Shown here in pieces: positions 17,845 through 61,496 of a DNA stretch of 64,000 nucleotides. Numbering within the stretch: the stretch's first letter is position 1; each line of letters opens with the position of its first letter. The notes under the pieces were generated by a model, which made no database searches, was not told the DNA's origin, and saw nothing but the letters and a program-made list of their open reading frames with translations. Origin of the DNA: a virus; IMG/VR virus record IMGVR_UViG_3300045988_123906; one strand, 5' to 3'. Made by a program: the position numbers and the translations under genes.

Positions 17845-20800
17845 TTACCGCTTGCTTTGCATTTGAGCAACCTTAGTCGGTAACTTCTGTTTGATTTCAT
17901 TTGCCAGAGCATCAGAGCTGCCAACGGGATTCGTGATAATAATATCGCCAATCGAAGTTGTAACATCTCCACCGCCGCCCTGAACAATCGGCTGAGAACC
18001 GTACTTTGCCATCTGCTTCTGGAACCATGCATCCGGGTTGCCGCCCATCTCGAACAGGCGAGAGGTGATATCAGCAGGAACAACACCATCGCCAGTCTCA
18101 AGGTAAGTGTACCGACCGGAATCCGGCTTACGAACCAGCATCTCAGGACCCTGCTCGTCAACGTTAGCCATGTGCGGGAACTTAGCAGACTTCAGACCAT
18201 TTGCATGGCCAAACAGACTGCCAAAGAAACCGCCAATTGCAGCACCGCCAATTGCACCCAGAGGCCCAAGGAATGAACCAACGGCAGCACCGATACCAGC
18301 ACCAGCAGCGGCTGTCACGCCCTTGCTTGGACCGGTATTCTGCTGTGTGCTCTGTTGTGCTTTTTGACTTGCTTCACTGATTGCGGCAGAAGTATCAGCA
18401 GCCTTCTTACCAACGGCTTCAAATGCATCGCCTGTGGTCGCCAAATCGTTTTTAATCGATGTAACGGCAGCTTCACATCCGGCCTTGATGGCGTTGTAAG
18501 ACTGGTCCATCATCCATGTCAGATTGGTGTTAATGTCCTTTGCGCCAGGCTCAACATTTGCCCATGCGTTATCCGTCTCAGTGGATAGAGAACCGCCATC
18601 GCCAAACGTATTTGTGGCATCAGAGGTGATCTCGTCATAAGCACCGCCAATGGTTTGCTCGGTCATGTCTGCCAGATGAGTTACGCCAGCCTCGTTCATG
18701 CTCCAACTATTGTCAAAGCACGCACGCATATCGTACATCAGCTTCTGGGTGTCTTGGCTGGTGTCAGCCCATGCTTGCTCCATTGTCTTTTGAACATTGG
18801 TGCTCAGGGTTTTTACACCGCCACCAACCTTACTCCAGCTGTGACCGAATGCCTTGGAGATCTCGTTCATGGCCTTATTTGTGCTATCAACAGAAGACTT
18901 ATAAGACGCATTCAGCTTATCCGCAATCTCTTTAGACATGTCGCCGGAAGTGGAAGCAAGGCTGTTCCATCCGCTGGTATAGATCTTTTGCAGCGAATCG
19001 AACATCGTGTTGGTGACATCTTCAACCTGTTCGGCGCTCAGGCCGGTATTCTCATTCAGTGCATCAAAGGTGTTGTTTACCAGCTCATTCATCTTCTCAG
19101 ACATCTTTTTGCTGGTTTTTTCAATATCCTTTGTGTCCAGACCGAGCTCGCCAGCCACAGATTTCCAGCTAGACTCAAAGTTGCTCGTCATAGACGAAAT
19201 TTGGCTCTGAGCCGCCTTCTTTGTGTTGCTGGTGGATTCTGTCACTGTCTTAGAGGAGTTGATCTTACCGACCGTAGACATACGATATACAGTCTTAGTG
19301 GCCATATAAATCATGCTTTGAACGGCAGCAATGATCGGATTATCACTCTTCTTGAAGATATCAGAGAGTCCAGACATGAACTCGTTTGTATCACCAAGGA
19401 TCTCATCATATTCGCTCTCGAAAATTGAGCCAACGCCAGCGGCTGCGGCAGCTGCGGCACCACTCAATTGAGCATTCGGACCTTGGGCACTCATACCGGC
19501 ACCGGCAGCGGCACTACCAGTCACTTCGGCCAAGCCCTTTGCCAGCCAGCCCTCGGGGTTAGCACCAATCGCCATCAGGTTGTCGGTTTCCTTTGCAGGG
19601 ATAACACCGTCACCTTTTTCAAGATAGGTCATGCGTCCCTGATCGGGGTTACGAACAATTAGCTCTTCGCCCTTTTCATCAACGTTTGCAATCTGACCCT
19701 TCTTAACACCACGAGTACCCTTTGCATATTTCTTTGCTTGGAATGCAGGAGTAGGTTCATCAACCTGTGTACTGGAAACATTACTTGCAATTGAAGCAAT
19801 CGTAGCAATCAGAGCAACTGCACCTGCAACAGCTGCGGCGGCAGCAATCCAACCAGCAATAGGAATGGAAGAAAGAGCGGCAGCAATCGCTTGCATCATA
19901 GCGGCCATGGCACTGCCAACGCTCGTCACCAGAGTACCAAGTCCGGCGAAGATAGAAGGGAAGAAGCTTACAACGCCAGACGAGATGGCACTACCGATAG
20001 ACTGTGCGCCAGCCGCAATTGGGCCAAACATACTTCCGATGGTATCAACAATATTTAACAAACCACCATTAGCGACATTGTTTGCTGTTGAGAATCCGTT
20101 CGTAAAGAACCCAATAATATCAGTAAACAGGTTGCCTGTTTTACCAGAAATGGCATCACTTACACTATTGAAAATCCCGCTTATATCCCATAGATTTCCA
20201 TTAGTTGCACTTAAAAGACGATCAAAGAAGTTACTAGATGTTCCTTCAATACTACGTGTACCAACAGATACATCACGACCGATGATTTTTAATTTCGCAC
20301 TATTCCAAGAAATAAGATCATTGAAACTTTTTCTGTTCTTACCAGTGATCAAATTCCAGCCGTCAGAAACCACTTTGGCTGCTCCGTCAAACATCTTCTT
20401 AAAGCCGCCACCAAGATCAAAATCACCGTTTTCGCCAGTGAATATGTTCTTGATTTGGTTGATAAAGCCAAAGACTCCGCCGCCATTACCAGCTCCGCCA
20501 TTAAGGGTGTTCAAGATATTCGCCAGCGTCTCCAAAGTAGAGATCAGATTGGAAATATCAGTGATAACATTCTTGACATTCGTCGCGCCCTGAATGGCCT
20601 GCATATTGTTAAGGACACTACCCTTGAAACCGTCATAGTGACCTTCCATCTGCTCAAAGGTCATGGCCTCGAACTCGGCTGTGTATTTTAGCTTCTTCTG
20701 ATAATCATCCCAGCTGGTGCCAATAAGATTATTGGTTTCCTGAACTTTATCTTTGAGCTTTTCCAGCTTGTCAATTTCATCTTTCTTTTTGTACTCACGC

Positions 20801-23800
20801 TGCTTGTCAGACAGGTTCTGTCCGGCTTCACGAACTGCATTTTCATCTGCTTTCTATACGAAACCTTGACCTCTGCCGCCATATACATGAACAGTCTTAT
20901 TGGCCTTTGCTCGCTCGTACTCGTCCTGAAGTTTTGCCAGTTCGATTGCTCGCTCCTGTGCATCATTTTCTTCATTGAGCGCGTCAATCCGCTTGTCAAT
21001 AACATCGATCCAGGCTTCACCTTGAATCTTGAGGTCATTAGATTTCTTATCATTGGCGTCATCTACAAGACCGAGCAGGGAAGAGAAAAGATCTTTGATG
21101 CTGGAAATCGTCGATTTGAGCTCGTCCAGGACATCTTTAACACCACCAAAATGAAGCTTCATTCGTGTCGCAGAATTCCCTGACGCTTTTTCCATGTCTT
21201 TAGTGGAGTTTGTAACGTCATCATAAGCGGCATTCATTTCGTTTGCAGCGTCAGTTACAGCTCCTTGAACATCGTGCATGCTCTTCCCAGCATACTTACT
21301 TGTCTCCCCAAGATCTTTTTTAATGTTTTCGGCTGATTCACCACCTATAGCTCGAACGTCAGCAGCGACAAGTTCTGCACCGTTTACGACTTGCCCTTGC
21401 ACTGCTGCAATCATGCCATGGACGTTAATTTCATCACCAGCAACATTTTCAAATAGGCCATTTGCGTCAACCTTTAAAATGTTTTCAGCTGTAGCGCCAC
21501 CCTCAAGTTGGGCAGCTTTTTCTACAACATCATTTACATAATTATAGATTTCATCAGCCGTGAGAGGAACAACACCATCTTCTGTCTGAAGCATAGGAGT
21601 GTAGGCAATTTCCTTTTCGCCTTGTCCCTCACCATCGCCAGTCCAGAATGAACTACTTTCTCCAAGAACAGTAGAGTATTCGCCAAGATGTACGTCTTCT
21701 TGTTCAGCAAATTCATGATACTTAGCGAGATTTTCTTCGTTCCATTCGATAACACCACGATGGAAGTTGTCAACATTACCATATTTCTGAACGTCGCTAT
21801 ATTGATTTACAACATCGTTATAATGTTCTTTTGCTTTGGCGTATTTATCGGCGGCCTCAGTAATTTTATCAATATTGTCCAGTCCAGTCACGTCTTTCAA
21901 CATCTGGCTAAACATATCACCCTGGGCTGTACCTTTGTACTGAACAGATGCCGCAGCAAGCTCTGCTGTATACAAATCCTGATATGCATCGGTGTTGAAT
22001 TTTAGCTGATTACCTACTTGTTCAATACATTTCAAATATTGAGGATCAAGATAGAGCAGTTTTTCATACGAATCATAGCTTAGTTGCCCATACGTATTGT
22101 ACTCATCGATGATCTCATTGATTGTCTCAAACCCAGATTTGAATTTATCTGTTTTATTTTTAATATCATCAAGCTGAGTGTTAAGCCCCTTGAGATAATC
22201 AGTGATTTTAATAACACCAGAACTTAATGCGTCAATCGATTTCTGAAGCAAATTCTGAATGGCGACATTCTTGGTTGCAGCTTTCTCATTTTCAAGAAGT
22301 GCAATTGTAGCTTCCTTCAGAGATTCTTCGTTTATCTGGAGATTACCGGATTCATCATAGAGGATGTCTTTAAGCTCACTATGTTCCTGAATCAGATCAA
22401 TAACAGATTCTACGTTATCGCTAGTCAATGCACCAGCAGGGTTATCAGTATTCAGAATGTCGTGAATGGTTCCGAATGCAGATTTCAAGCCAGAAGTTTT
22501 CTCCTGTGCCTTATCAAGAGAGGCACCAACTCCTTCGATTGCGTCACGCAATTCATTCAGAGAGATAGTACCATCTTTAGCATTTTCATCAAGATATTTT
22601 AGAATCTGGGTATACTGAGAGACTTTAGCCTTTGTCTTATCCGAAGAATCGGCGGTTGCAGCAGCTGCTTCTAATTCTTTTTGGATCAGATTGCGATATT
22701 CTGTTGCATTGATCGTTAGCTGATTGCCTTCTTTTTTCAGGAATGCAGTATATTTTGATTCGAGTCCCATCAGAGACTTCATTGTATTCAGGCTGACAGA
22801 ACCCTTCTTGTTATACTCATCCATAGCAGAGGATAGAGTAGACCATGCATCAATAGCAGAAGTTGCCTGTTTGGTGGACTTGGAAGTATCGTTTTTGCCC
22901 CAAATTTTACTTGGGTCCTGTTTGCCTAAGTTGTCTAACAACCCTGATAGTGTATGATAATTCTTCCTGTAAATCTCACCGGCTCGTTTTACTTTGTCGT
23001 AACCAGCCCAACCGTCACTATCTTTCGCTTGTTGTGCAGATTTTTCAGTTGCAGCATCAATAGCAGTATCGGCATCAGAAATAACAGCAGTAACGTCGCC
23101 TAACAAAGCTTCTGCTTTGGCAAGAGTGTTAGTATCTTTGATATTATTTAACGTATCTGCAAGTATGGATGCTTTCGCCAATTGGATATTTGCTTGAGTT
23201 AAAGATTGAGCGGTTTTTGTATTGATTTTCAGTTTGCCATTCTTCAAATCAAGCATATTCAGATACTGCGGCTCAAGTTGACACAGAGACTGTAGTGTAT
23301 CCATCGTGACGTAACCTGTCTTATTGTACTCCTTAACGGCCTGAGCACAAGATTGATAGGCAGACTGCATGTTATCAAGCGCTGTCATAGCATCAGACAA
23401 AGATTTTACCTTGCTTGAATCACGAACGGCAACAAGTCCTACTGTCTCAAGCGCAGAAACAAACTGATCAAAGGTTACGCCTGCTGCTTTTGCTGCATCC
23501 TCGAGAACTTTAATTGCAGCGGCTTGTTCTTTTGTTTGATTAGCCGGAACAAAAGAAAGCTCTCGAATGTCATCTCCGGTTTCAAGACCAGAAGTTTTGA
23601 GAGCGTTAACAGCGCCAACATATGCATTGCCCTTAGAATCAGAATTGCCACGGCGATCCATAGATGTTTTGACACGCTGCATCTTTTCAAGTAAGACATC
23701 GTATGCTGTTGTGCTTATTTTAACATCATCATTTGCATCTGCAAGAGCATTAGTAGCATCTGTGATTGTGTTCGTGCCAGCAATATATTCATCTTTGTAC

Positions 23801-25176
23801 TGATCAAAATTATCAGCGTCGGTGCTATAGTTGCTCATCTGCTCGGAAACAGCAGTGGATAATTCTTCGACCTTGGTTTTCTGGGATTCAAAAGTTTCAT
23901 TCAGAGCATCGAGTTCTTTCTTTTTATTTGCATACTCTTTAGAATCTTTTCCGCTAGAGGCTTCAATTTGGTCAAGTTCAACCTGAAGATCACGACGCTT
24001 TTGAATGGTGTCTTCGAGTGCTGCTGTATACTCCTGGAGAGATTCGGTCTTGGTAACTTTATCAGCTTCTGAGTATGTAAACATTTTTCCAGATGTTGGA
24101 TCAATGTCTTCGGATTGATGGAAATTAACAATGCTATCTTCTGTTTGATCGTTAACAACGGCACTTGTTGTTGCGTTATTAGCGTTATATTGACCTTTTT
24201 GGAGCTTTTCTTTCAACTCGAGTTGTGCCTGAAGCATATCGTTAATTACCTGTAGATGCTCACGTTCTGCAGGATCTACAATATCTTCGATTTTTTCAGC
24301 CCCAGCGTCTTTAATAGAGTTGTTAAGGTCATCAATTTTCGATTTAATGTTATCAATATCAGAGGCAGTTGTATTTGCAGCTTCATGTGCTTCTTCCATC
24401 TCTGCCACTAATTCTTCAGAATGGCTCTTCAGATTTGCAATATATTTTACAATTTCAGTGGCAACAAAAGCTAACGCAGCCGCACCTAAACTCAATAAGA
24501 GTTGCTTGCCAATTTGCATAACAGCATTCCAAGCAATCTGAATATCAGTCAGCGTCATGGTTGCAACGGAATCTGCTTCTACGTTTGCAATAACCCCTTT
24601 AAATGATTCTCCAAACTGATAATTTCCAGAAGTACCAGTTATAATTCCTTGTTTCCGAAGCTGTTCAATATCAATCAACGATTCGTTTTCGTTAATCCAC
24701 TTCTCTATTGCAGGGATTGCATCTGACGTTATCGCAAGGCCATACTGTTTTTCGGCATCCTGTAACCCGCTGACTTTAAGCATACCCTCTACAGCAGCTT
24801 TACTAAATCCGTTTTGTAAGAGCGTTTGTTCAGTCAGAACTCCGCTAAGTTTTTCACCTTCTGCAATCTGCTGAACGAGGTTCTGTATAATTTCTTTTTG
24901 ACCGTCTATAAATTTGGTCATTCCAAATACAGCTTCTTGTTGTTTATCATTTAGAACAGAGATTTGAGCTGCATATTTTTGAAGAGCAGGATCATCTTCT
25001 GTAGCACCAGCTGACTCTAAATCTACCTTTTTGGCATTTCCGATAGTAAAATCACCAAGGGTCATAAATGTTCTGCGCAAAAATCCAGCGTTACCCATAT
25101 TCTGAGAAGCCTTAACTGCTTTTTCAACAGATCCATCAAGATTATTTCCAATATCAATCATTGACTTATTGATTGT
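17845..25176 (-). CDS. tape measure protein, predicted exon 3 (2443 codons), in-frame TAG at 20854..20856
   Basis: ORFs 20854..25161 and 17845..20664 are in the same frame with an open linker. Two C-terminal repeats ANVDE[KQ]G.E[LM][IL]VR.PD.GR.TYLE.GDGV[IV]PA are typical of TMP C-termini. There is no SD before ATG 25161. The frame is open from 25176, which matches the intron guide sequence. Confidence 0.7.
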
Positions 25177-25189
25177 CTTATCTTATAAT
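25161..25189 (+). promoter_or_regulatory. sigma70-type promoter for the plus-strand cargo genes
   Basis: TTGACT (25161..25166), 17 nt spacer, TATAAT (25184..25189), about 45 nt upstream of GTG 25235. Confidence 0.55.
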
Positions 25190-25234
25190 AATTTTAATGG
25201 TCAAATAAAATTATTTGTCAATGAGGTGATATAA

Positions 25235-25849
25235 GTGAAATTTGGTGATATGAAAATAGATGTACCATTTGAAGGAATTGTTGAAAGAAGTGAAGACTTC
25301 GGATTTATAACAAAATACCGTATAGCAATGGAAGGGAAAAGGTTACTTGAAAAACATCCAGAATACAAATATTTAAAAGAAGATCCAACATTAAAAGCCA
25401 AAAACGACTTTTATTGTTCTGTGACCTATGCATACATGGTTGATCAAATTTTAAAAGAAAATCCAGAATTTAACCCATGTTACAAAGAAATGATTTCGAA
25501 AGGCTATGAAATTAACACTGTAGATGGGGTGAAGAAACGTTACCTATATTCAAATTATGATTTTCTTTGGAAATGCGTTGATCTCTTTACAGAGAAGCAG
25601 CATCCTGGAACACTAGCATGGAGAGCAAAAAGAAAAGCTCAAGAGAAACAAGCCAGGGATAGACAGATGTTGGAAATGGAAATTGCCTATGAAGCGAAAC
25701 ATCCTCATGTCATTTGTCCCTACTGCAAGTCCACGAACACTGAAAAGATCAGCACCGTGAGCCGTGCCGTATCTGTGTCTCTCGTGGGCGCTGCCAGTGG
25801 GAAGATAGGAAAACAGTGGCATTGTAATAACTGTAAGAGTGATTTTTAA
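25235..25849 (+). CDS. hypothetical protein with a C-terminal zinc-ribbon (CPYC...CNNC), 204 aa
   Basis: SD GAGGTG lies 6 nt before GTG. Ends in TAA. It is on the opposite strand to all neighbours. Confidence 0.6.
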   Translation: MKFGDMKIDVPFEGIVERSEDFGFITKYRIAMEGKRLLEKHPEYKYLKEDPTLKAKNDFYCSVTYAYMVDQILKENPEFNPCYKEMISKGYEINTVDGVKKRYLYSNYDFLWKCVDLFTEKQHPGTLAWRAKRKAQEKQARDRQMLEMEIAYEAKHPHVICPYCKSTNTEKISTVSRAVSVSLVGAASGKIGKQWHCNNCKSDF

Positions 25850-25923
25850 GCTTGCGGTGCTCTTTACTTTTTGTCTTTTTATGGTAGACTTAAATAGAGA
25901 CTAGGAGAAAGGAGGAGGTTACA

Positions 25924-26121
25924 ATGACTAGAGAAGAGTTTAATAAGATTCTTTCTGAGGAAACAGATAAAGAAATAAAGCATGTTATTGAATCTATTGA
26001 TTTTAGCAATAAGGATCAAGATGAAATTCTGACAGAATCTGTGGCTATCGCAATTGCTGCATCCAATAACATCATCTTATCTGTCTTGGAAAAGGCTGGA
26101 GTGTTAACCTACGAAAATTAA
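25924..26121 (+). CDS. hypothetical small protein (65 aa)
   Basis: SD AAAGGAGGAGG before the ATG. Ends in TAA. Confidence 0.55.
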   Translation: MTREEFNKILSEETDKEIKHVIESIDFSNKDQDEILTESVAIAIAASNNIILSVLEKAGVLTYEN

Positions 26122-26324
26122 CACTTCCAGTTGATTGAATTGCCTGAATTGATCGAAGAAGTTTTTACAAATCGTTCACTTGATTCCATTAGCTTCTTTG
26201 TCTTTTCAGGTAATTTTTCTCTGATTACTTTCGCCAAATCATCAGCGTTTCCAATAGGTTTTCTCTGTTCTTTAATGTAATCAAGAAGGGCAGTGAGTTC
26301 TTTTGCTTCAATTTCAATCTTCAT
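26118..26324 (-). CDS. hypothetical small protein (68 aa)
   Basis: SD AAAGGAG before ATG 26324. Its TAA is convergent with 25924..26121. Confidence 0.5.
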   Translation of the reverse strand: MKIEIEAKELTALLDYIKEQRKPIGNADDLAKVIREKLPEKTKKLMESSERFVKTSSINSGNSINWKC

Positions 26325-26340
26325 AATAATTCTCCTTTAT

Positions 26341-26383
26341 AAATAGCAAAAGCCCGGCCTCCCAGCAGTAGGGAAGTCGGGCT
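26341..26383 (-). terminator. rho-independent terminator (13-bp GC-rich stem)
   Basis: The minus-strand RNA forms AGCCCGACUUCCC-UACUGCU-GGGAGGCCGGGCU followed by UUUGCUAUUU. Confidence 0.6.
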
Positions 26384-26409
26384 TGTTCATTATAATGATT
26401 GCACAGCAG

Positions 26410-26742
26410 TTATTTCAGAAGTTCGGTGATCTCTTCAGCAGTCATACCGCTGGCCAGTGCATTGGCAACAATATCTTCTGCCTTTTTACGATTCAATTCT
26501 GCCGCAATCTTTTCATCGGCATCAGCCTTTTTCTTTTCGAGCTTTGCAATCTCTTTATTGATTTTCTTCAGTTCTACTTCCTTAGCCTTGCGGTCAGCAT
26601 TCAGCGCGGCAATATTCGTGCCGAGTGCTGCGATTTCTTCAGCGAGAGATTCTGCAGCAGTATTTTTCTCGGCGATCTGTGCTGCGTAATCAACGCCATC
26701 GAGAACCTTTGTTTTATTCTTGCTTCCTTTGGGTCTTGCCAT
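26410..26742 (-). CDS. coiled-coil protein (110 aa)
   Basis: ORF with an SD. Lys/Glu/Ala-rich heptad-like sequence. Ends in TAA. Confidence 0.6.
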   Translation of the reverse strand: MARPKGSKNKTKVLDGVDYAAQIAEKNTAAESLAEEIAALGTNIAALNADRKAKEVELKKINKEIAKLEKKKADADEKIAAELNRKKAEDIVANALASGMTAEEITELLK

Positions 26743-26794
26743 AGTAAAAATACCTCCGTATATTTTGGATACGCGATTGTACCTTTATTATAGC

Positions 26795-27319
26795 TTACGT
26801 CGTAAGTAGTGTCAATATAAACTATGTCGAAAGAAGCTGATCTTCTATGTTGTCCATAATATTTTTAACATCAGTCTCATGGTCAAAAGCATCGCCGTAT
26901 TTGATTTCTTCTTGTGATGGAAGCTGAAAACTGAATACAGTATGTCCATTGTAATTACTTATTGAAAAATCTGTACGAGAAAGAATGTTCATCCCAATAA
27001 TAGCATCATAATCACGGTTACTATCTTTTAAAACCGTAAATTCTTCATTAGTAAAAGAAACATCAGAAGACAAAATTAAATTCGCAACAACAGAACTTCT
27101 TATTGCTTCATCTTCACCGAATTTGACCTGATAAATGTTTCCTGTTTCAGGAAAATCTAATCCATCAACAACCCACTGCATAACATAGCTCGCAACAGCT
27201 CCAGTATCAACAAGGGCTCGTACCTTTGCTGCACGATTATTGTGTTCGAGTACAGCAGGTATTATTATTGATTTTTGTACTTCATCATATGTGATAGTAT
27301 ATGTTTTTACTTCCGCCAT
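26795..27319 (-). CDS. retropepsin-like aspartic protease (165 aa to TAG 26822, 174 codons if the TAG is read through to TAA 26795)
   Basis: ALVDTGAVAS (DTG active-site motif) plus IIGMNILS, as in clan AA retropepsin-like proteases. Confidence 0.6.
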
Positions 27320-27326
27320 ATTCTTA

Positions 27327-27560
27327 TCATTCTTTCTTTATTAGATATGATTCAAACGGACCAACATAATCAATTTGCGGAAAGAGCTTTTCGTTTTCTT
27401 TCATACGTTTGTCAAAATATGAATCCATAATAACTTTTTCATCATCAGATAAATTATGCCGTTTCTGGAAATACCGGTGCTGCCACTTTAATCTATGAGG
27501 ATGATCAAAATACTATGCCCAAGCATATCCTTCGCAAATCTTCTTTGTTTCTTTGTCCAT
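27327..27560 (-). CDS. hypothetical protein, 77 codons, in-frame TAG at 27513..27515 (not in the ORF track)
   Basis: AGGAGGAAAGT precedes ATG 27560. MDKETKKICEGYAWA[TAG]YFDHPHRLKW... runs to TGA 27327. Confidence 0.5.
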
Positions 27561-27599
27561 ACTTTCCTCCTGATACTATCACATAATAACTCTTCTGTC

Positions 27600-27997
27600 A
27601 AATTTTATTCTCCACTTTTGACGGCAGGGGAGAGGCCACCTGTAATTTTGCCTATGGCGTTATAGCAATTCCATACGCAGTAGTGATTTGGAGCACCCCA
27701 TAGTGAACCTGCGGCGCTGTTATGCACGTAGTTCCACTCCGACATTATGCTCTCTGAAGCGTCTCTGGCAGTACCTATTATAATAATGTAGGCACACATA
27801 GAGCTTGCCTGCGGATTCCTTTCGGTTCCCGGACGAGAATTACCCAAACTCGCCACAGCTTACGCTGCCATGTTCGTCGGTTTTACTAAATACTCCCTCG
27901 CACTGCAGCACTTAATATAATAAGCGCAGCAGGCTTGTTCCGTGTCACCACCCGGAGTATTGCTGGGCACAATCGTGAAACCCGTCATTTTGGGTTT
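27600..27997 (-). ncRNA. group I intron ribozyme core (5' part of intron 2)
   Basis: The guide GAUUGUGCCCAGC lies at 27962..27974. A Q-like element AAUCCGCAGGCAAGC lies at 27804..27818, able to pair with CUGUGG upstream. An R-like element GCCAGAGACGC lies at 27759..27769. There are several GNRA-capped hairpins. The ORF-track translations here look non-protein-like. Confidence 0.65.
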
Positions 27998-28561
27998 ACC
28001 CAGCTGAGTTATAAAGGTTGCGATACCAGCACCCATTGGAATAGCGCCAGTAAATTTAATCATTGCATCTGCGGCTTTTGTAAGTCCAGTTGCGAGAGAT
28101 ACGACAGCCTTGACAAGACCGGAGTCAAGTACATCGGTAGAAAGTGCTTGGAAAGATGCGTCATACTGAGCAAGACGACCCTGAATAGAATCAAGGTATT
28201 TCTCATTCTCAGCCCATGCGACGTTTGCACTGTTTGCAGCAGATTCCATGGAAGATTCAGCAACGTCAAAATTATTTAGAATAGCACTAACTGCATTTGC
28301 GTTTCTCTTTCCACCAATCATCTCAGTGACATTCGCCTGCGTTACATCGGACAGGCCACTCCATACTTGAGACAGCTCTTTCATGATTTGATATGTGCTC
28401 TTGAAATTTTTGCTATCCAGCATGATGTCAACGCCAGTCAAAGATTTCAGTTCACTACGAAGTTCAGACACAGAATTGGCCATGCCATCAACTTCAATGC
28501 CTGCATTCTCTGCGTCACTTTTAGCAGCACGGAGATACATAGAAAGACTTTTTAAAGTTGT
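27998..28561 (-). CDS. tape measure protein, exon 2 (188 codons)
   Basis: TTLKSLSMYLRAAK...FKSTYQIMKELSQVWSGLS..IGGKRNANAVSAILNNF continues the TP901-type TMP core that starts at the end of exon 1. Confidence 0.7.
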
Positions 28562-29876
28562 CAAGCTGTTACTTTTATGACCATATCGCTATGGCGGGTA
28601 GTCATTTCTGGCTACCTCTCACGTTTCATTTTGTTATATCGTGAGTTCGGACTGGATCTTCACCCTGGAAAGAATAACAGGGGATAGCTGAACCCTATAT
28701 GTTACCATATAAGGTATTACAGTCTCTACGCATTTTTAATCAGTAAAGTCATGCCCAAGCAGTTAGGATGCTAAGCATAATTTTGGTTGTAATTCGTCTT
28801 TCGATAATTCACTGTAAGATAAAACAATATTATCATTTAGAGTTATTTTATCGTTGTCAAGATGATAGTTGAATGAATTGTAATTTTGAAGCCGTCCGTT
28901 TTCATTTATAAATTTCTGTATTAAAGCTTCACACAATTTCGGATTTTTGTTTATGTCGGATTCCCATAGATATAAAATAGGAATATTATATGTTTCCGTT
29001 ATATATGTATGCTTCGCTTTGTCTCTTCGAATAGCTTCTCGTTGCTGCTGATATTTTATGATTGGGTATCGTATTGGACTACAATGCCAATAATCGCCCA
29101 TGACTTCAATAAATAAATTGCAGTCTACCAAATAATTATCAACGGCATAATATTCTACATTGTATTCATTTGTATATTTAATGCCCATGTTATCAAGCAT
29201 TTTATTTAATATAAGTTGAGGTTTGCTTTGAGTTTGAGATATTATACCACTTTCAATTATTCTTGCGGCGCGTTTTCGGGATTCTTCTTTCCATTCAGGT
29301 TGCTGGCTCCAAACTTTTGCATACCATTCTCTTCTACATTTTGATGAACAGAAATGATTGTTTTGGTTTTTTATTTTATATCCATTTTCAAAATATTTCT
29401 CGCCACACCAATCACAAGAAATCAAATCTCCTTCAAATTTTGGATTATTGAAACCGACTCTTGTCTTTTGCTATTCGTTTTGACACTTATCAGAACAAAA
29501 TCGTTGAGTTGATTTTTTTGATAAATACATATCTTTTCCACAAATTTCGCATGGGCGATGCTCGTAAGCAGTCTCATGATGCCATGCAATAGAACATTCA
29601 TTTGAACAGAAATGATGCTTTGTATTATTATAATGATATGCATTCATATATTTCAATTGTCCGCACCATTCACAGTTATACCATACACCGGTTTTACTTC
29701 CTTTTGCTGGAATAACAATCACCTCCATAAAAATAAAAACCACACAACTCCTAACTGTGCGGTTCGATATAACTTTACTGATTAAATCTTTGCTCGGTCT
29801 TGTCCACTTCTGGATTTTGACCGATATAGCTAATTTTTCTAGCTACCTATTACTAGGCAGCGTCGGCATATACTTT
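28562..29876 (-). mobile_element. group I intron 1 (1315 nt) with an endonuclease ORF looped out
   Basis: P1 pairs exon GUCGGU (29877..29882) with GCCGAC (29862..29867), with a G-U wobble at the splice site. P2 is GCUGCCUA-GUAA-UAGGUAGC. A 14-bp helix (29773..29786 with 28735..28748) brackets the ORF. An R-like element GCGUAGAGACUG lies at 28720..28731. The intron ends in G at 28562. Confidence 0.75.
28763..29743 (-). CDS. intron-encoded homing-endonuclease-like protein, 326 codons, in-frame TAG at 29471..29473
   Basis: Three CxxCG...FCSxxC zinc-finger repeats followed by a Vsr/DUF559-like nuclease motif (FIEVMGDYWHC). ORFs 29471..29743 and 28763..29425 are in the same frame across the TAG. 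Confidence 0.65.
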
Positions 29877-32800
29877 ACCGACCGTGTCTGCATCTTGGAT
29901 AACTGCGTTTGCAGCGGTACCAAGCGCAATAGTTTCTTCCAGTGTATTATTAGCAGCCGACATAGCAGCAGAACTACGAGTCAAGATTTCACCAAGGTCT
30001 TTTGCGGTAACAGGTTGCGTATTTGCTACAGCGTCAATTTTATTAACAACGTCCTCTGCCTGATCAGCAAGCAAACCAAAGCTTTGCATTGTCGAAATCA
30101 GATACGAAGACGAAGTGTTAACATCATCAATTCCGTCTCCCACGTTTTTGAGCAGGGTAGAGTAGGTAGCCATATTCTCAGCGTCTTCATCAGAATAACC
30201 GAGGCGCTTCCAATCAGCAGTCGAATTGACGTAATCACTAATCGAAACACCAAGCTTTTGTGCTTGCTCAGACGCGCGGCCCATATACTCTTCAAGAGAT
30301 TTGCCGGCGTATTCACTGACTTTGCGTAGTTCTGTAACAGCTGTATCGATTTCAACTACATTCTGATATACGATCCGCAGAGCGTCTTGCATCTTGTGCA
30401 AAGCGGCCATAGTGATCATGGTGCTCAAATGCTGGCCAAAAAGCTTTTCAAACTTATCAACTAAGGTTTCTGTTTCAAGTCCAAGTTGTTTTGACTCAGC
30501 ACGAAGTTCAGCATGCCTCTTTTTTAGCTCGCCAATTCGTGCAGGTGCATCACTGCTATTTAAAGCATTTAATAACTCATAAAATCCTTTTCCTGTGTCT
30601 GTACCTTGAAGTTTTTTATTTGCATCAAGGTAATCATGGATCGTTGATTTCAAATTTGCAACTTCAGTAGACGCTTTATTAAACGAACGCTCCTGCGAAG
30701 TGGCTGCATTAAAATTTTTGGCTTCTTGTGTTGCTTCACTATATTCGTTATTAAGCGCGTTTAGTGCATCAGTGATAGAATTGATGTTACTAGCTGCTGT
30801 TTTTGTTAAATTACTTGTGGCCCATGTTTTTGCAGCTTGTACAGGATCGGTTCCTTCCTCGACACTGGTAAGTAAGTTGCTTAACTTGTCTTGTTTTTCT
30901 TTTAATTGAGAATAAAAGTTTTTATCTGTTCCGTTATTGCTTTTTACTTTTCCAATCAAAGACTGATTGGAGTTCATAGCTTTGTTCACTGCGGATGCTC
31001 CTGCAATTCGAGCACTAGCTTGTTTTATAGCTTTATTTTCAGCGTCGTTTACAGCATCAACCTTTATCTTTATTTCCTCCCAAAGGGGAATGATTTCTTC
31101 CAGAGTCTTAGCGTATTCATTGGTTTGAGCAGGAAGTTTATTGAGTTTTGCAATCAGTTCATCAATGTTTTTAAAATCAACATCCTTAAGACTGCCATCT
31201 TGTTGCATCTGTCGTGCAATTTCAACACCTTGAGCAATTTTATTACCCTTCTTCTCAAGCCCCTTATAGCCTTTGCGCCACAGGGTATGTTTTGCTTGAA
31301 CAGAATAAGTGTTTTGCTTCAAAGCCAAAAGATCACTTGCATAATTATCATATTCGGCTGGGTTCTTAGATGCAAGTTCTGCAGCTTGTTTTTCGATTTT
31401 TGCGATCTCGTCTTTTAACTCGTTATTGGAACTCTGGGAGACCTCTTCTTTAAGTAAAGCAAATCTCTTACGAATAACATCAACTGCCGAAACAAGATCG
31501 TTTTCTGCTTTTTTAGAAGAATTTATAGCAATCATAACATTCTTCCAATTATCTTCTGCTGCTTTAACTGCATTATTATATTCTTCTGTGCCAGCAGTGG
31601 CTTTTGCAATTTCATCAACGAGTCGCTGTTGTACATGAAGAGCTTCTTGAATAGCTGTAGGGGTTTTATTGGCTGCATTAGCTTCTTCAACAGTACCGTA
31701 AGTCTTTTGTGCTTCTGTCAACTGATCAGTGATCTTTTTGCCACGAGTAGTTTGTGCAACTTTATTTTTATTACTTTCATGGGCCTTTATAATGGAGATC
31801 TGGCGATCGACTTTTTCTTCGACTTCAGCATCTTCTTTTCCCATTTGATCCATTAAATCAGTATATTCTTGGATCGTTAATTTCATCGAATTTAAAGTTG
31901 CATTTTTTTTCTCATCTAATTTATCAATCGCATTTTTTACAGCTATTGCTTCATCAGAATTTTCATCTTCTCCAAGACGTGCTTTCTTTAACTTATATGT
32001 ATTTTGTTCGTTTCTGTATGCACGATAGGCAGAAAGTTTTCCATTATTATATTTATTTCTTTCATCTTGAGCTGTTTGAATACTTTCTTGACTCTCTTTT
32101 ACACTCTTAGAATCTGCATGACGTAACCGAGTATAATCGACTTCTTTATTTGCATAGCGGAATTTTCTGTCAATATACCATTTATCGCTATCTGTATTTG
32201 TGTCGTTTAACAGCTTTACGATTTCATCACGATTTGCTCTTAAATTTTCAAGACACTTTTGAATAGTGCTAACTTCAGCTTCAGAGACATCATCAAGCAA
32301 GTTCTTTGTCTCAGCGATTTTTTTATTGACTGTTATTAAGTCACTAATCAAACCACGGCGAGATGTAGAAGTTTTTCTATTAGTAGAAGCTGTTTTAGTA
32401 GTATCTTTTGGGTTAGAAGATTTTTCGGATGCATCTCGAATAGCATTAGCAATTTCAGCGTTTTTTAGAATCAGATTACCCTTAACATCAATACCGCCTT
32501 CTGGTAACTTGATGTTGTCTTTTGTGACAGTTACTTTGCCATTCATCACTATTGGATCAGGTCGCTCAACATCTTTGTCTTCAAGTTTGATGTGACCTTT
32601 CAACTCAATAAGCTCTTGCTTTTCAATATCGTTTTGCGATTTCTTCCTTTTGCCTTTCGTCTCGGTATCAGTAGTTGTTGTGACAATTTTACCTTTAACT
32701 TCAACCGGGGTCTTTGGAGGAGTTATATCTGCGGCTTCAAGAGTAACATGGCCTTTGATATCTACTGGTGTTTCGGGTGCGACAACATCATCAGCACTCA

Positions 32801-34523
32801 AAATAACCTTACCATCAATTGCAGCCGGTTCACCAGTGACCGCGATATTGGAGGTATCGATTTTAATAGAATTAGATTTATCGATATAATTGTTTGTCAG
32901 TTCAGAAATGCGAGTAAAATCAGCAATTTGATTCTCTAGTGAATGACTTAAATTATCGACTTCCTGCACTACATACTGGAATGCTGGACCGAGTTCAGCT
33001 ATTTCTGATGCATAGCTATCAGTTTTATTAACGATACTTTGCAATGCTTTTTTTGCAGATGTAATTGAATCGACATTTTTTTGCAATTCTTCTGTATTGC
33101 CAAATTGAACAGCATCAGAATTAACTACAACAATACCAGGAATTTGAACCGGATCTTTGACATCAACAGACACATCTGCATCGGTTATAACGACTTTACC
33201 TTGAATAGAAACAGAAGACAACCCTTCTTCGACTCCTGCTGCGCCATCCTTAGAATCTTCTTGCCCTTTGGAATCAGCAGGAATATTTTTTTGACCATTC
33301 GGTAAGACATCAATTAGAGTCTTTAGCTGTTTTACCTTCTCTTCAATATTGTCAACATGTTTATCAACTTCAACAGTAAGGTTGTTTGAAAAATTTTTAG
33401 ACTTACTCTCTAAACCATCCATTGCGGCACTAACTTCACCAATAGATTGAATGATTTTCTTTGTATTCTCATCGAGAACAGATGAATCAATAGGGATGCC
33501 AGCACCAATAGACTCTTGCTCGGATTTTTTTAGCCCATCTATTTCCTTTTTAGAACGATCGATTGATTGTCCGATTAAATCATTAAGATGAGTGAATGTC
33601 GAAGCATAATCTAATAAGTCTTGATAATCTTCCACTGACTTGGAAAAAACAGAATAATCTCCACCTTGACCTCTGAGATTAGAGATATCTTCAAGGCCAC
33701 CTTTTGCATTATCAATAAAATTTTTCAAGATAGAACCTTTGATGTTAAGATTTTTTAATGCACCAGGAGCATTATACAACTCTTCCAATTGAACAATTGC
33801 ATTTTTTATAGAATCATATGTCTTTTCAAAATCTTTGAATGTGTTATTATAAACAGATTCATCCGCTTCGTCCCATGCTTTGGACATCAAAGAAAGAGAG
33901 TTGCTAAGATTGATCAGCGCCTTACTCATTTGATCAATTGAAGTTATATCACTATCTGCTGAAATCTTGCCCGCTTCTTTTAATTTCGGCATTTCGGAAT
34001 AAATATCATTCAACTGTCGATTTAGTGTTTGCGCTTTTTTAATATCCTTTTTTGAGATTTCATTGAAAATACTATCAACCGTTACATCTCGATTTCCACC
34101 ACCAAAAAGTCCATACGTGGCTTTATTAGCAAGTGCAAGATTAGTTTGCATCTCCTTTAGATAATTAGAAAGAGTGCGATTTACACCACGAAGCTGCTCT
34201 TTTAGTTGCTTTGAAAGGTCATTGCCGAATTCTTTAACGTCTAGTTTGACCTTAATTTGTTGAGCGCCATTTTGTGCGGCAGTAATCTCGTCGTTAATCT
34301 GTTGCGTTAAGTTTTTCTTAAGATTTGGTTCGATATCAACACTATAAGGTCCACCTAATCCTTTTTCAATTTCGTCCTGTAAGTTAGATATATCAGGCGT
34401 AATAGGGACAGCAGGTAATTTTTTTATATTGCTGACTTGCGCCCGTACATCTTCTTCAAGTTTCGCCTTATTGATTTGCGGGTCAACCTTAACTTTGATG
34501 CTCAATTCTGGTTCTCTCGCCAT
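29877..34523 (-). CDS. tape measure protein, exon 1 (1549 codons)
   Basis: SD GAAGGAGGAA before ATG 34523. Long coiled-coil sequence ending in the TMP core motif ALGTAANAVIQDADTVG, which continues in exon 2. Confidence 0.75.
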
Positions 34524-61373: not shown

Positions 61374-61496
61374 CACGCAATAGTCGGATACCCTTTCGGG
61401 GTCGCACCGTTCAAAGCGGCCCCTTTCCAGCTCCGCAATAGGGGCGTAGCGCCTTAGAGTGTGGCGCATTGTAGACACTCAGAAAAGAGGTTCACT

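Follow-up and report, generated by a model that had tools for sequence, protein, structure and literature searches.

A probable group I intron with a distant 3′ splice site and an exchangeable gene cargo in the tape-measure gene of an SPbeta-like gut phage

Group I introns of bacteria and phages are, to our knowledge, limited to a single endonuclease gene at most. The td and sunY introns of phage T4 are precedents for internal promoters and for a remote 3′ junction. The group I intron of sunY (nrdD) is said to have been described by Michel et al. in Genes Dev in 1992 as having a ‘remote 3′ splice junction’. Here we analyze a 64-kb stretch of viral DNA (64,000 nucleotides (nt), below called the window) from IMG/VR record IMGVR_UViG_3300045988_123906, in which a giant tape-measure gene is split into three pieces. 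From sequence comparisons, the segment between the second and third pieces, 27997..25177, is probably a single cis-splicing group I intron in the tape-measure gene of an SPbeta-like gut phage. Unless stated otherwise, coordinates refer to the minus strand.

Like sunY, the window intron has its core at the 5′ end, coding sequence next and a 3′ site far downstream, which would be set by pairing P10, a terminal G and a small 3′-terminal structure. The two differ in scale, with ∼2.4 kb from core to 3′ site in the window and up to 4.8 kb in its relatives, against less than 1 kb in sunY, and in content, since sunY carries one homing endonuclease whereas the window cargo is several independently promoted genes on two strands. 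The window intron also lacks P7.1 and P7.2 and has two extra hairpins between P3 and P4. That group I introns occur in phage tape-measure genes is already known from prophages of the Bacillus cereus group, where three insertion sites in the gene were described (Tourasse and Kolsto 2008, PMC2504315). There, as here, the tape-measure gene of a Firmicutes phage is interrupted, with several insertion sites per gene, and the window gene likewise appears to have two introns. The portions of that paper considered here, compared by description only, make no mention of cargo with several genes or of antisense genes. What appears distinct in the present case is its scale, up to 5.2 kb; a multi-gene, two-strand, rapidly exchanged cargo with no recognizable endonuclease; a promoter on the opposite strand that spans the splice site; and a core that has two extra hairpins and goes unrecognized by the standard model.

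The window genes relevant here all lie on the minus strand, and the identity of the tape-measure gene comes from the Pfam domain PhageMin_Tail found in homologues. The gene and its proposed splice elements are as follows.

34523..29877, minus strand, tape-measure exon 1
28562..29876, minus strand, upstream interruption of the same gene, starting after GGU and ending in G
27998..28561, minus strand, tape-measure exon 2, 188 codons, ending ...FITQLG, with the predicted 5′ splice site after U27998
28004..27998, minus strand, GCUGGGU, the last 7 nt of exon 2 and 5′ strand of P1
25177..27997, minus strand, the whole predicted intron, 2821 nt from A27997 to terminal G25177
27962..27974, minus strand, internal guide GAUUGUGCCCAGC, both halves of which covary with the exons in other lineages
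17845..25176, minus strand, tape-measure exon 3, starting ACAAUC (25176..25171), the exon strand of P10

An initial annotation, made from the letters of the window alone, had proposed a ribozyme whose guide matches an exon junction 2.8 kb away, and its junction elements were found to be as it described them. The GCUGGGU at the end of exon 2 was located at 28004..27998, and the 3′ half of the guide at 27974..27962 (GCCCAGC, 27968..27962) pairs with it at 7/7 positions, with a wobble pair U27998-G27968 at the splice site. The 5′ half (GAUUGU, 27974..27969) pairs at 6/6 positions with ACAAUC at 25176..25171. This site is preceded by G25177, and its ACA is in frame, five codons before ATG 25161, for which no Shine-Dalgarno sequence is visible; a TAA stands three codons further upstream. 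The proposed length also holds (27997 − 25177 + 1 = 2821). Exact ACAAUC occurs elsewhere in the intron once (26780), preceded by T rather than G. Ligated exons would read ...TQLG/TINKSM..., and the predicted tryptic peptide spanning the junction is FTGAIPMGAGIATFITQLGTINK.

We regard as decisive that guide and distant exon change together in other lineages. The guide:exon pairs of P10 are GAUUGU:ACAAUC in the window, GAAUGU:GCAUUC in L099, UUAAUAU:GUAUUAA in L100, UUAUUGU:GCAAUAA in L102, GGAAUAU:AUAUUCC in L105 and UUAAUAU:AUAUUAA (7/7) in L098; in L103 P10 is weaker, with four pairs, a mismatch and two pairs. P1 covaries with its exon too (e.g. GGUGGGU:GCCCACC), its U-G wobble being invariant in 14/14 aligned sequences while three of the remaining P1 pairs have both bases replaced. 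Across seven lineages, the window included, introns delimited in this way measure 836–5196 nt and their final base is always G. After ligation the reading frame would continue for 520 codons or more in 7/7 lineages, whereas unspliced read-through stops after 11–45 codons.

Closer relatives locate the distant boundary independently of the guide. In 32 IMG/VR loci holding both ends, exon 3 lies 2821–5196 nt past the 5′ splice site, and in tblastn every alignment to it opens with the residue that directly follows the proposed junction, before the ATG is reached; at 25161, L016, L024, L029 and L031, which form one lineage, have ATA in place of that ATG. The base before exon 3 is G in 32/32 of these loci, despite variation in the five preceding bases, and also in six diverged introns. 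At the other boundary, protein homology ends at the end of exon 2 in all relatives, and read-through tails then start.

We scanned the spliced sequence against 1.8 billion representative proteins. An uninterrupted homologue, P0133 (4283 aa), matches query residues 1–329 with its residues 1748–2074 in a single stretch across the junction; P0135, P0180, P0241, P0247 and P0249, also uninterrupted, likewise match across it, and an alignment is gapless at the junction. The uninterrupted tape-measure homologues are distant ones only. The initial annotation had pointed to uninterrupted relatives as a check, and this was borne out by colinear distant proteins though by no close intron-less copy: among the close tape-measure homologues all carry the intron. 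Searched for as DNA, the ligated exons were not found in viral contigs; four hits in metagenome contigs are chance matches outside any tape-measure open reading frame (ORF). Apparent junction-spanning tblastn matches (L016, L023, L025-L028) proved to be read-through into the ribozyme rather than intron-less alleles, and the match from a junction-centred protein search was likewise an unspliced read-through fragment.

The first ∼390 nt of the intron, 27997..27608, were compared with MT837120, a phage fragment (locus L001), and then with 33 further distinct IMG/VR copies. Invariant blocks alternate with hairpins whose arms change together and whose lengths vary. This conservation extends past the read-through stop codon. 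Homologous proteins end in translated ribozyme RNA (e.g. ...QLG[KE]PKMTGF...), and more distant relatives have the same RNA motifs in another reading frame with stops elsewhere; because frame and stop differ among relatives, the conservation is not protein-coding. Diverged copies (L099, L100, L102, L103, L104) were fetched through tape-measure proteins ending at the same point. The structure that emerged has the following parts.

27978..27997, minus strand, hairpin inside the P1 loop, AAACCC...GGGUUU, 98.8% paired, with three pairs changed on both sides
27939..27956, minus strand, P2 hairpin, its loop GGUGGUGACA nearly invariant and kept even in diverged lineages
27900..27934, minus strand, variable P2.1-like hairpin, retaining its pairing while sequence and length vary
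27876..27880, minus strand, P3 5′ strand CCGAC, with 3′ partner GUCGG at 27743..27739
27868..27855, minus strand, hairpin H1 between P3 and P4, its GNRA loop holding the read-through stop, with four pairs changed on both sides
27854..27832, minus strand, hairpin H2 between P3 and P4, from the structure alignment
27812..27831, minus strand, P4 (CGGG:UCCG) and a minimal P5 (CC-GAAA-GG), flanked by AA and including the start of the Q-like element
27757..27806, minus strand, P6 with variable P6a, covarying, its 3′ strand containing GCCAGAGACGC
27747..27756, minus strand, P7 5′ strand CAGAGAGCAU, the true R element, with G27754, bulged A27753 and G27752 onward
27746..27744, minus strand, J7/3, AAU, between P7 and the P3 3′ strand
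27704..27736, minus strand, P8, covarying
27690..27696, minus strand, P7 3′ strand GUGCUCC
27608..27689, minus strand, P9-type hairpins (27678..27650, variable, and 27642..27625) and the conserved core end GUCAAAAGUGGAGAA

This explicit structure was evaluated on a 14-sequence alignment, with slid pairing partners and 500 shuffles as controls. Paired cells amounted to 95.6%, against 31–44% with slid partners, and 20 pairs had changed on both sides, against 9.7 in shuffles, of which 0/500 reached 20. The compensatory changes include P1, P3, P5, P6, P7 and P8. P3 and P7 cross, forming the group I pseudoknot; each is 100% paired and has two pairs changed on both sides. P3 appears as CCGAC:GUCGG, CCGAU:AUCGG or CCAAC:GUUGG, the GNRA-capped P5 as CC:GG, AG:CU or UG:CA, and P7, again 100% paired, as GAGCAU:GUGCUC, GACUAU:AUAGUC or GAGUAU:GUAUUC. 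Within P7 the pattern G27754, bulged A27753 and G27752-C27691 is invariant, and G27752-C27691 is the candidate guanosine-binding pair. The covariation reassigns one element of the initial annotation, whose R-like GCCAGAGACGC was correctly placed at 27769..27759 yet belongs to the 3′ strand of P6 and not to R. Its Q-like AAUCCGCAGGCAAGC is present, one base from where it was put (27817..27803, not 27818..27804).

Two alternative pairings were discarded. A nested helix GGAGUAUUU:GGGGUGCUCC proposed by RNAalifold was rejected since L100 keeps P7 by compensation and cannot form that helix, and a long-range pairing between the P2 region and the 3′ end of the core was dropped after three uncompensated disruptions. 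The stop codon that ends read-through from exon 2 (27860..27862) sits in the H1 loop as GUAA, or as CUAG in L035 and L038. Any ribosome translating unspliced RNA would therefore have to open P1, P2 and the P3 5′ strand before it reached this stop.

The initial annotation had also suggested a covariance-model search of the core, and this did not confirm it. The Rfam group I model RF00028 gave no match to the window ribozyme at the gathering threshold or at E ≤ 10, whether over 6 kb or over 421 nt. The canonical group I J3/4 is 3 nt, without hairpins. In every member of our family H1 and H2 lie between P3 and P4 instead of a short single-stranded J3/4, and these hairpins are probably why Rfam misses it. 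The only member of the wider family that RF00028 detects is a sister intron in L098 (protein P0141), at 33.4 bits and E = 1.6e-6, under the gathering score of 50. P7.1/P7.2 hairpins, typical of subgroup IA2 (the T4 sunY/td type), were looked for in the window core and none was found; J7/3 there is just AAU, so the intron is not of that subgroup. Taken as a whole, the initial proposal of a group I intron with a distant 3′ site is supported by covariation in the core and in P1/P10, the terminal G, the reading frame and the colinear homologues. Absent from that proposal were the amber codon of exon 3, hairpins H1 and H2, the hairpin close to the 3′ splice site, the promoters of the cargo and the antisense promoter lying over the 3′ splice site.

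At the far end of the intron two conserved features lie close together.

25187..25215, minus strand, 3′-terminal hairpin, 10 nt upstream of the 3′ splice site, with covarying stem and conserved loop YYGACCAYY
25161..25189, plus strand, near-consensus promoter TTGACT-17-TATAAT of the antisense gene, overlapping the 3′ splice site and the first exon 3 codons

Stem sequences of the hairpin are many among relatives, while the loop keeps GACC. In 8/22 lineages the stem contains G-U pairs on the gene strand, and the antisense fold is then much weaker; because these pairs exist only on the gene strand, the hairpin would function in the intron RNA. No pairing partner for it was established in the core. 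A loop-loop contact with P2 (GACCAYY with GGUGGU) is possible on paper and shows no covariation.

Between 27601 and 25216 lies the cargo, a mosaic drawn, among the 32 relatives, from ∼15 recurring gene families.

27573..27601, minus strand, cargo-opening promoter-like site TTGACA-17-TAGTAT with TG, directly after the core and conserved in most relatives
27327..27560, minus strand, first cargo ORF, with in-frame TAG at 27515..27513 where relative L023 has Trp
26822..27319, minus strand, 165-aa gene with a retropepsin-like aspartyl protease match, weak and below the Pfam family cut-off, in 27/32 relatives
26346..26815, minus strand, self-contained cassette of promoter, coiled-coil ORF and terminator-like hairpin
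26815..26787, minus strand, cassette promoter, a perfect TTGACA-17-TATAAT
26742..26410, minus strand, coiled-coil ORF, 110 aa, in 32/32 relatives
26383..26346, minus strand, terminator-like G+C-rich hairpin followed by a U run
26118..26324, minus strand, cargo ORF, 68 aa
25924..26121, plus strand, antisense cargo ORF, 65 aa
25235..25849, plus strand, antisense 204-aa gene, helical domain and C-terminal zinc ribbon, adjoining the 3′ splice site

Of the cargo genes, just two occur in 32/32 relatives, the coiled-coil ORF and the antisense zinc-ribbon gene. The latter also recurs, through its C-terminal domain, in 4/6 diverged introns, and its protein has several hundred uncharacterized homologues in the protein collection; a confident model (predicted local distance difference test (pLDDT) 80.7) gave no fold match in the PDB (best E = 0.85), and the protein falls into no known family. 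The first cargo ORF is probably a pseudogene in the window genome, because L023 encodes Trp at the site of its TAG. No cargo ORF matched a homing endonuclease family in Pfam, PHROGs or PADLOC, and PADLOC returned only coiled-coil noise. In L016, L018, L019, L029 and L033 one cargo gene encodes a protein of 227 aa in which Pfam clearly recognizes a PemK/MazF toxin domain (E = 9e-20), which would make it a toxin gene within a self-splicing intron. Overall, the intron body appears to be an island of accessory genes with their own promoters, freely exchanged between relatives and removed by RNA splicing.

These parts suggest how the intron would work. The first ∼390 nt would fold into the ribozyme, with GCUGGGU:GCCCAGC forming P1, and an external guanosine would cleave after U27998. 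RNA polymerase would run on through the ∼2.4 kb of cargo, reading through its terminator-like hairpin. The small hairpin at 25215..25187 would then sit just upstream of the 3′ splice site, where the guide GAUUGU would pair with the first six bases of exon 3 as P10. Finally, terminal G25177 would enter the guanosine site of P7 (G27752-C27691) and the exons would be ligated in vivo by the catalytic core.

Several observations weigh against this reading. Splicing itself is inferred rather than observed. RF00028 is silent on this ribozyme, as described above; two hairpins occupy the place of the usual 3-nt J3/4, and by minimum free energy the core folds only modestly better than shuffled sequences (z = −1.9). 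P10 in the window sequence alone is not decisive, because with G-U pairs allowed about four other sites of G plus hexamer within the intron fit the guide. The 5.8-billion-protein collection holds no high-identity protein spanning the junction. Within the intron there is the strong terminator-like hairpin at 26383..26346 on the gene strand, and at its end the near-consensus convergent promoter at 25161..25189 (plus strand), either of which could hinder synthesis of a full-length precursor. That promoter equally explains the conserved ATTATA and AAGTCAA around the 3′ splice site, so their conservation is not evidence for splicing.

Three other explanations were weighed, which even together we consider unlikely. 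The exons may not be ligated, the tape measure being made as two or three polypeptides, the first ending in a 45-residue read-through tail and the second starting at ATG 25161, with the conserved RNA a relic or serving another role, e.g. only message cleavage. Such an arrangement would fit the separate annotation of the pieces by gene callers in hundreds of contigs, the ATG at 25161, a cargo with its own promoters and terminator-like hairpin, the lack of an Rfam match and the failure to find the spliced product in databases. We nonetheless think it improbable, since covariation of guide and exon 3 in several lineages would be purposeless without ligation, and the terminal G is invariant. Protein conservation begins five codons before the ATG, which one lineage lacks and which has no Shine-Dalgarno sequence; the read-through tails show no conservation at the peptide level and end at different places in different lineages, and homologues are single proteins across the junction point.

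The remaining two accept a working ribozyme and differ on where its exon lies. It might mainly use a nearby 3′ site, G27599/ACAGAA, so that the tape measure would be cut short and end in a 36-residue tail, with little or no use of the distant site. This UUUG/ACAG is 9 nt past the conserved core. Four pairs with the guide, one of them G-U, are possible for its first four bases, and diverged introns have similar ends, GAUUUG. The motif is however the −35 hexamer TTGACA of the cargo promoter, so that the G/ACA comes for free; no more than 4/6 guide positions pair, L005, L013 and L035 lack the site or have a different one, the resulting tail is not conserved and the covariation of P10 with the distant exon is left unexplained, all of which makes this very improbable. 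Splicing in trans is to our minds just as hard to credit. Here the tail-operon transcript would end within the cargo, exon 3 and the intron end would come from an internal promoter, and the RNAs would meet via P10 and the 3′ hairpin. The terminator-like hairpin at 26383..26346 on the gene strand, weak gene-strand promoter-like sites at 25849..25821 and 25239..25210, and a conserved 3′ hairpin whose invariant loop could dock all suit it. Yet the internal gene-strand promoter candidates match 9/12 positions and are not conserved, the short members L098, L100 and L105 (836–944 nt) have no room for separate units, and no extended complementarity between the halves was found; we also know of no natural trans-spliced group I intron in phages.

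Returning to the cis-splicing intron, a precursor must pass the internal terminator-like hairpin and an antisense promoter lying over the 3′ splice site. This leads us to a tentative and rather doubtful extension, in which the intron would not only hold cargo but also act as a regulated gate, and full-length tape measure would be made only under late antitermination or on shut-off of the antisense gene. In an extreme version the halves would be joined in trans. The antisense zinc-ribbon gene might be part of this switch, or of intron spread.

The upstream interruption of the gene (29876..28562) is a precisely bounded extra element, because L001 lacks it and joins 29878 directly to 28561. It has a P1-like pairing (GUCGGU:GCCGAC) and two ORFs with homing or HNH endonuclease-like matches, and was not detected by Rfam. 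Splicing of both introns (29876..28562 and 27997..25177) would restore a tape measure of ∼4180 residues. In the window genome itself that protein would be truncated, because exon 3, which the initial annotation had taken as a 2443-codon ORF, is not open throughout: it is broken by an in-frame TAG at 20856..20854, where 32/32 relatives covering the site have TGG (Trp). By this comparison the TAG is a private G>A nonsense change and not stop-codon recoding; the window copy may be defective, or the base miscalled. Recoding of TAG was rejected given TGG in 32/32 relatives at 20855, private window substitutions without mutational bias and the lack of any tRNA in the window. Two TGG>TAG changes are present in the window (20856..20854 and 27515..27513), and the substitution spectrum is unbiased.

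The relatives L098-L105 are flanked by the SPbeta-type structural genes YomU (tube), YomW, YomV and YonB, which places these 75–150 kb gut phages near SPbeta-like viruses. A host search gave a sole match in the genome collection, to a metagenome-assembled genome labeled Peptococcaceae (L106). The sole Rfam match above gathering score in the window is a RAGATH-5 RNA at 61384..61436 (plus strand; 52.1 against 50 bits).

The sister intron of L098 lies in a related but diverged tape-measure gene, near the same point and at the end of the matching protein region. It shares with the window intron a core, an antisense zinc-ribbon ORF (homologous in the C-terminal domain of its protein) and a distant 3′ site. 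It differs in its canonical R/S core (CGACUA/UAGUC) with a large P5 extension, in its length of 944 nt without sense-strand cargo, and in an insertion point ∼11 residues downstream of that in the window by protein alignment. The cargo itself resembles phage morons and hypervariable islands, in that it consists of small cassettes, each equipped with a promoter and a terminator, which differ between close relatives and in some include a PemK/MazF-like toxin. Those islands lie between genes, whereas the window island would lie inside a self-splicing intron of an essential late structural gene.

If the intron is spliced as proposed, the separate and oddly ending genes now annotated in hundreds of gut-phage contigs would be parts of one tape-measure gene, and the restored protein of ∼4200 residues predicts a very long tail. 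The intron body would be an exchangeable island of 0.4–4.8 kb with promoter-driven genes on both strands, in some relatives with a toxin. Because Rfam's model misses this ribozyme, further introns of the kind may have gone unnoticed. The system lends itself to testing how a ribozyme locates a splice site that is kilobases distant, and suggests that phages can park accessory genes in an essential gene without cost to the protein.

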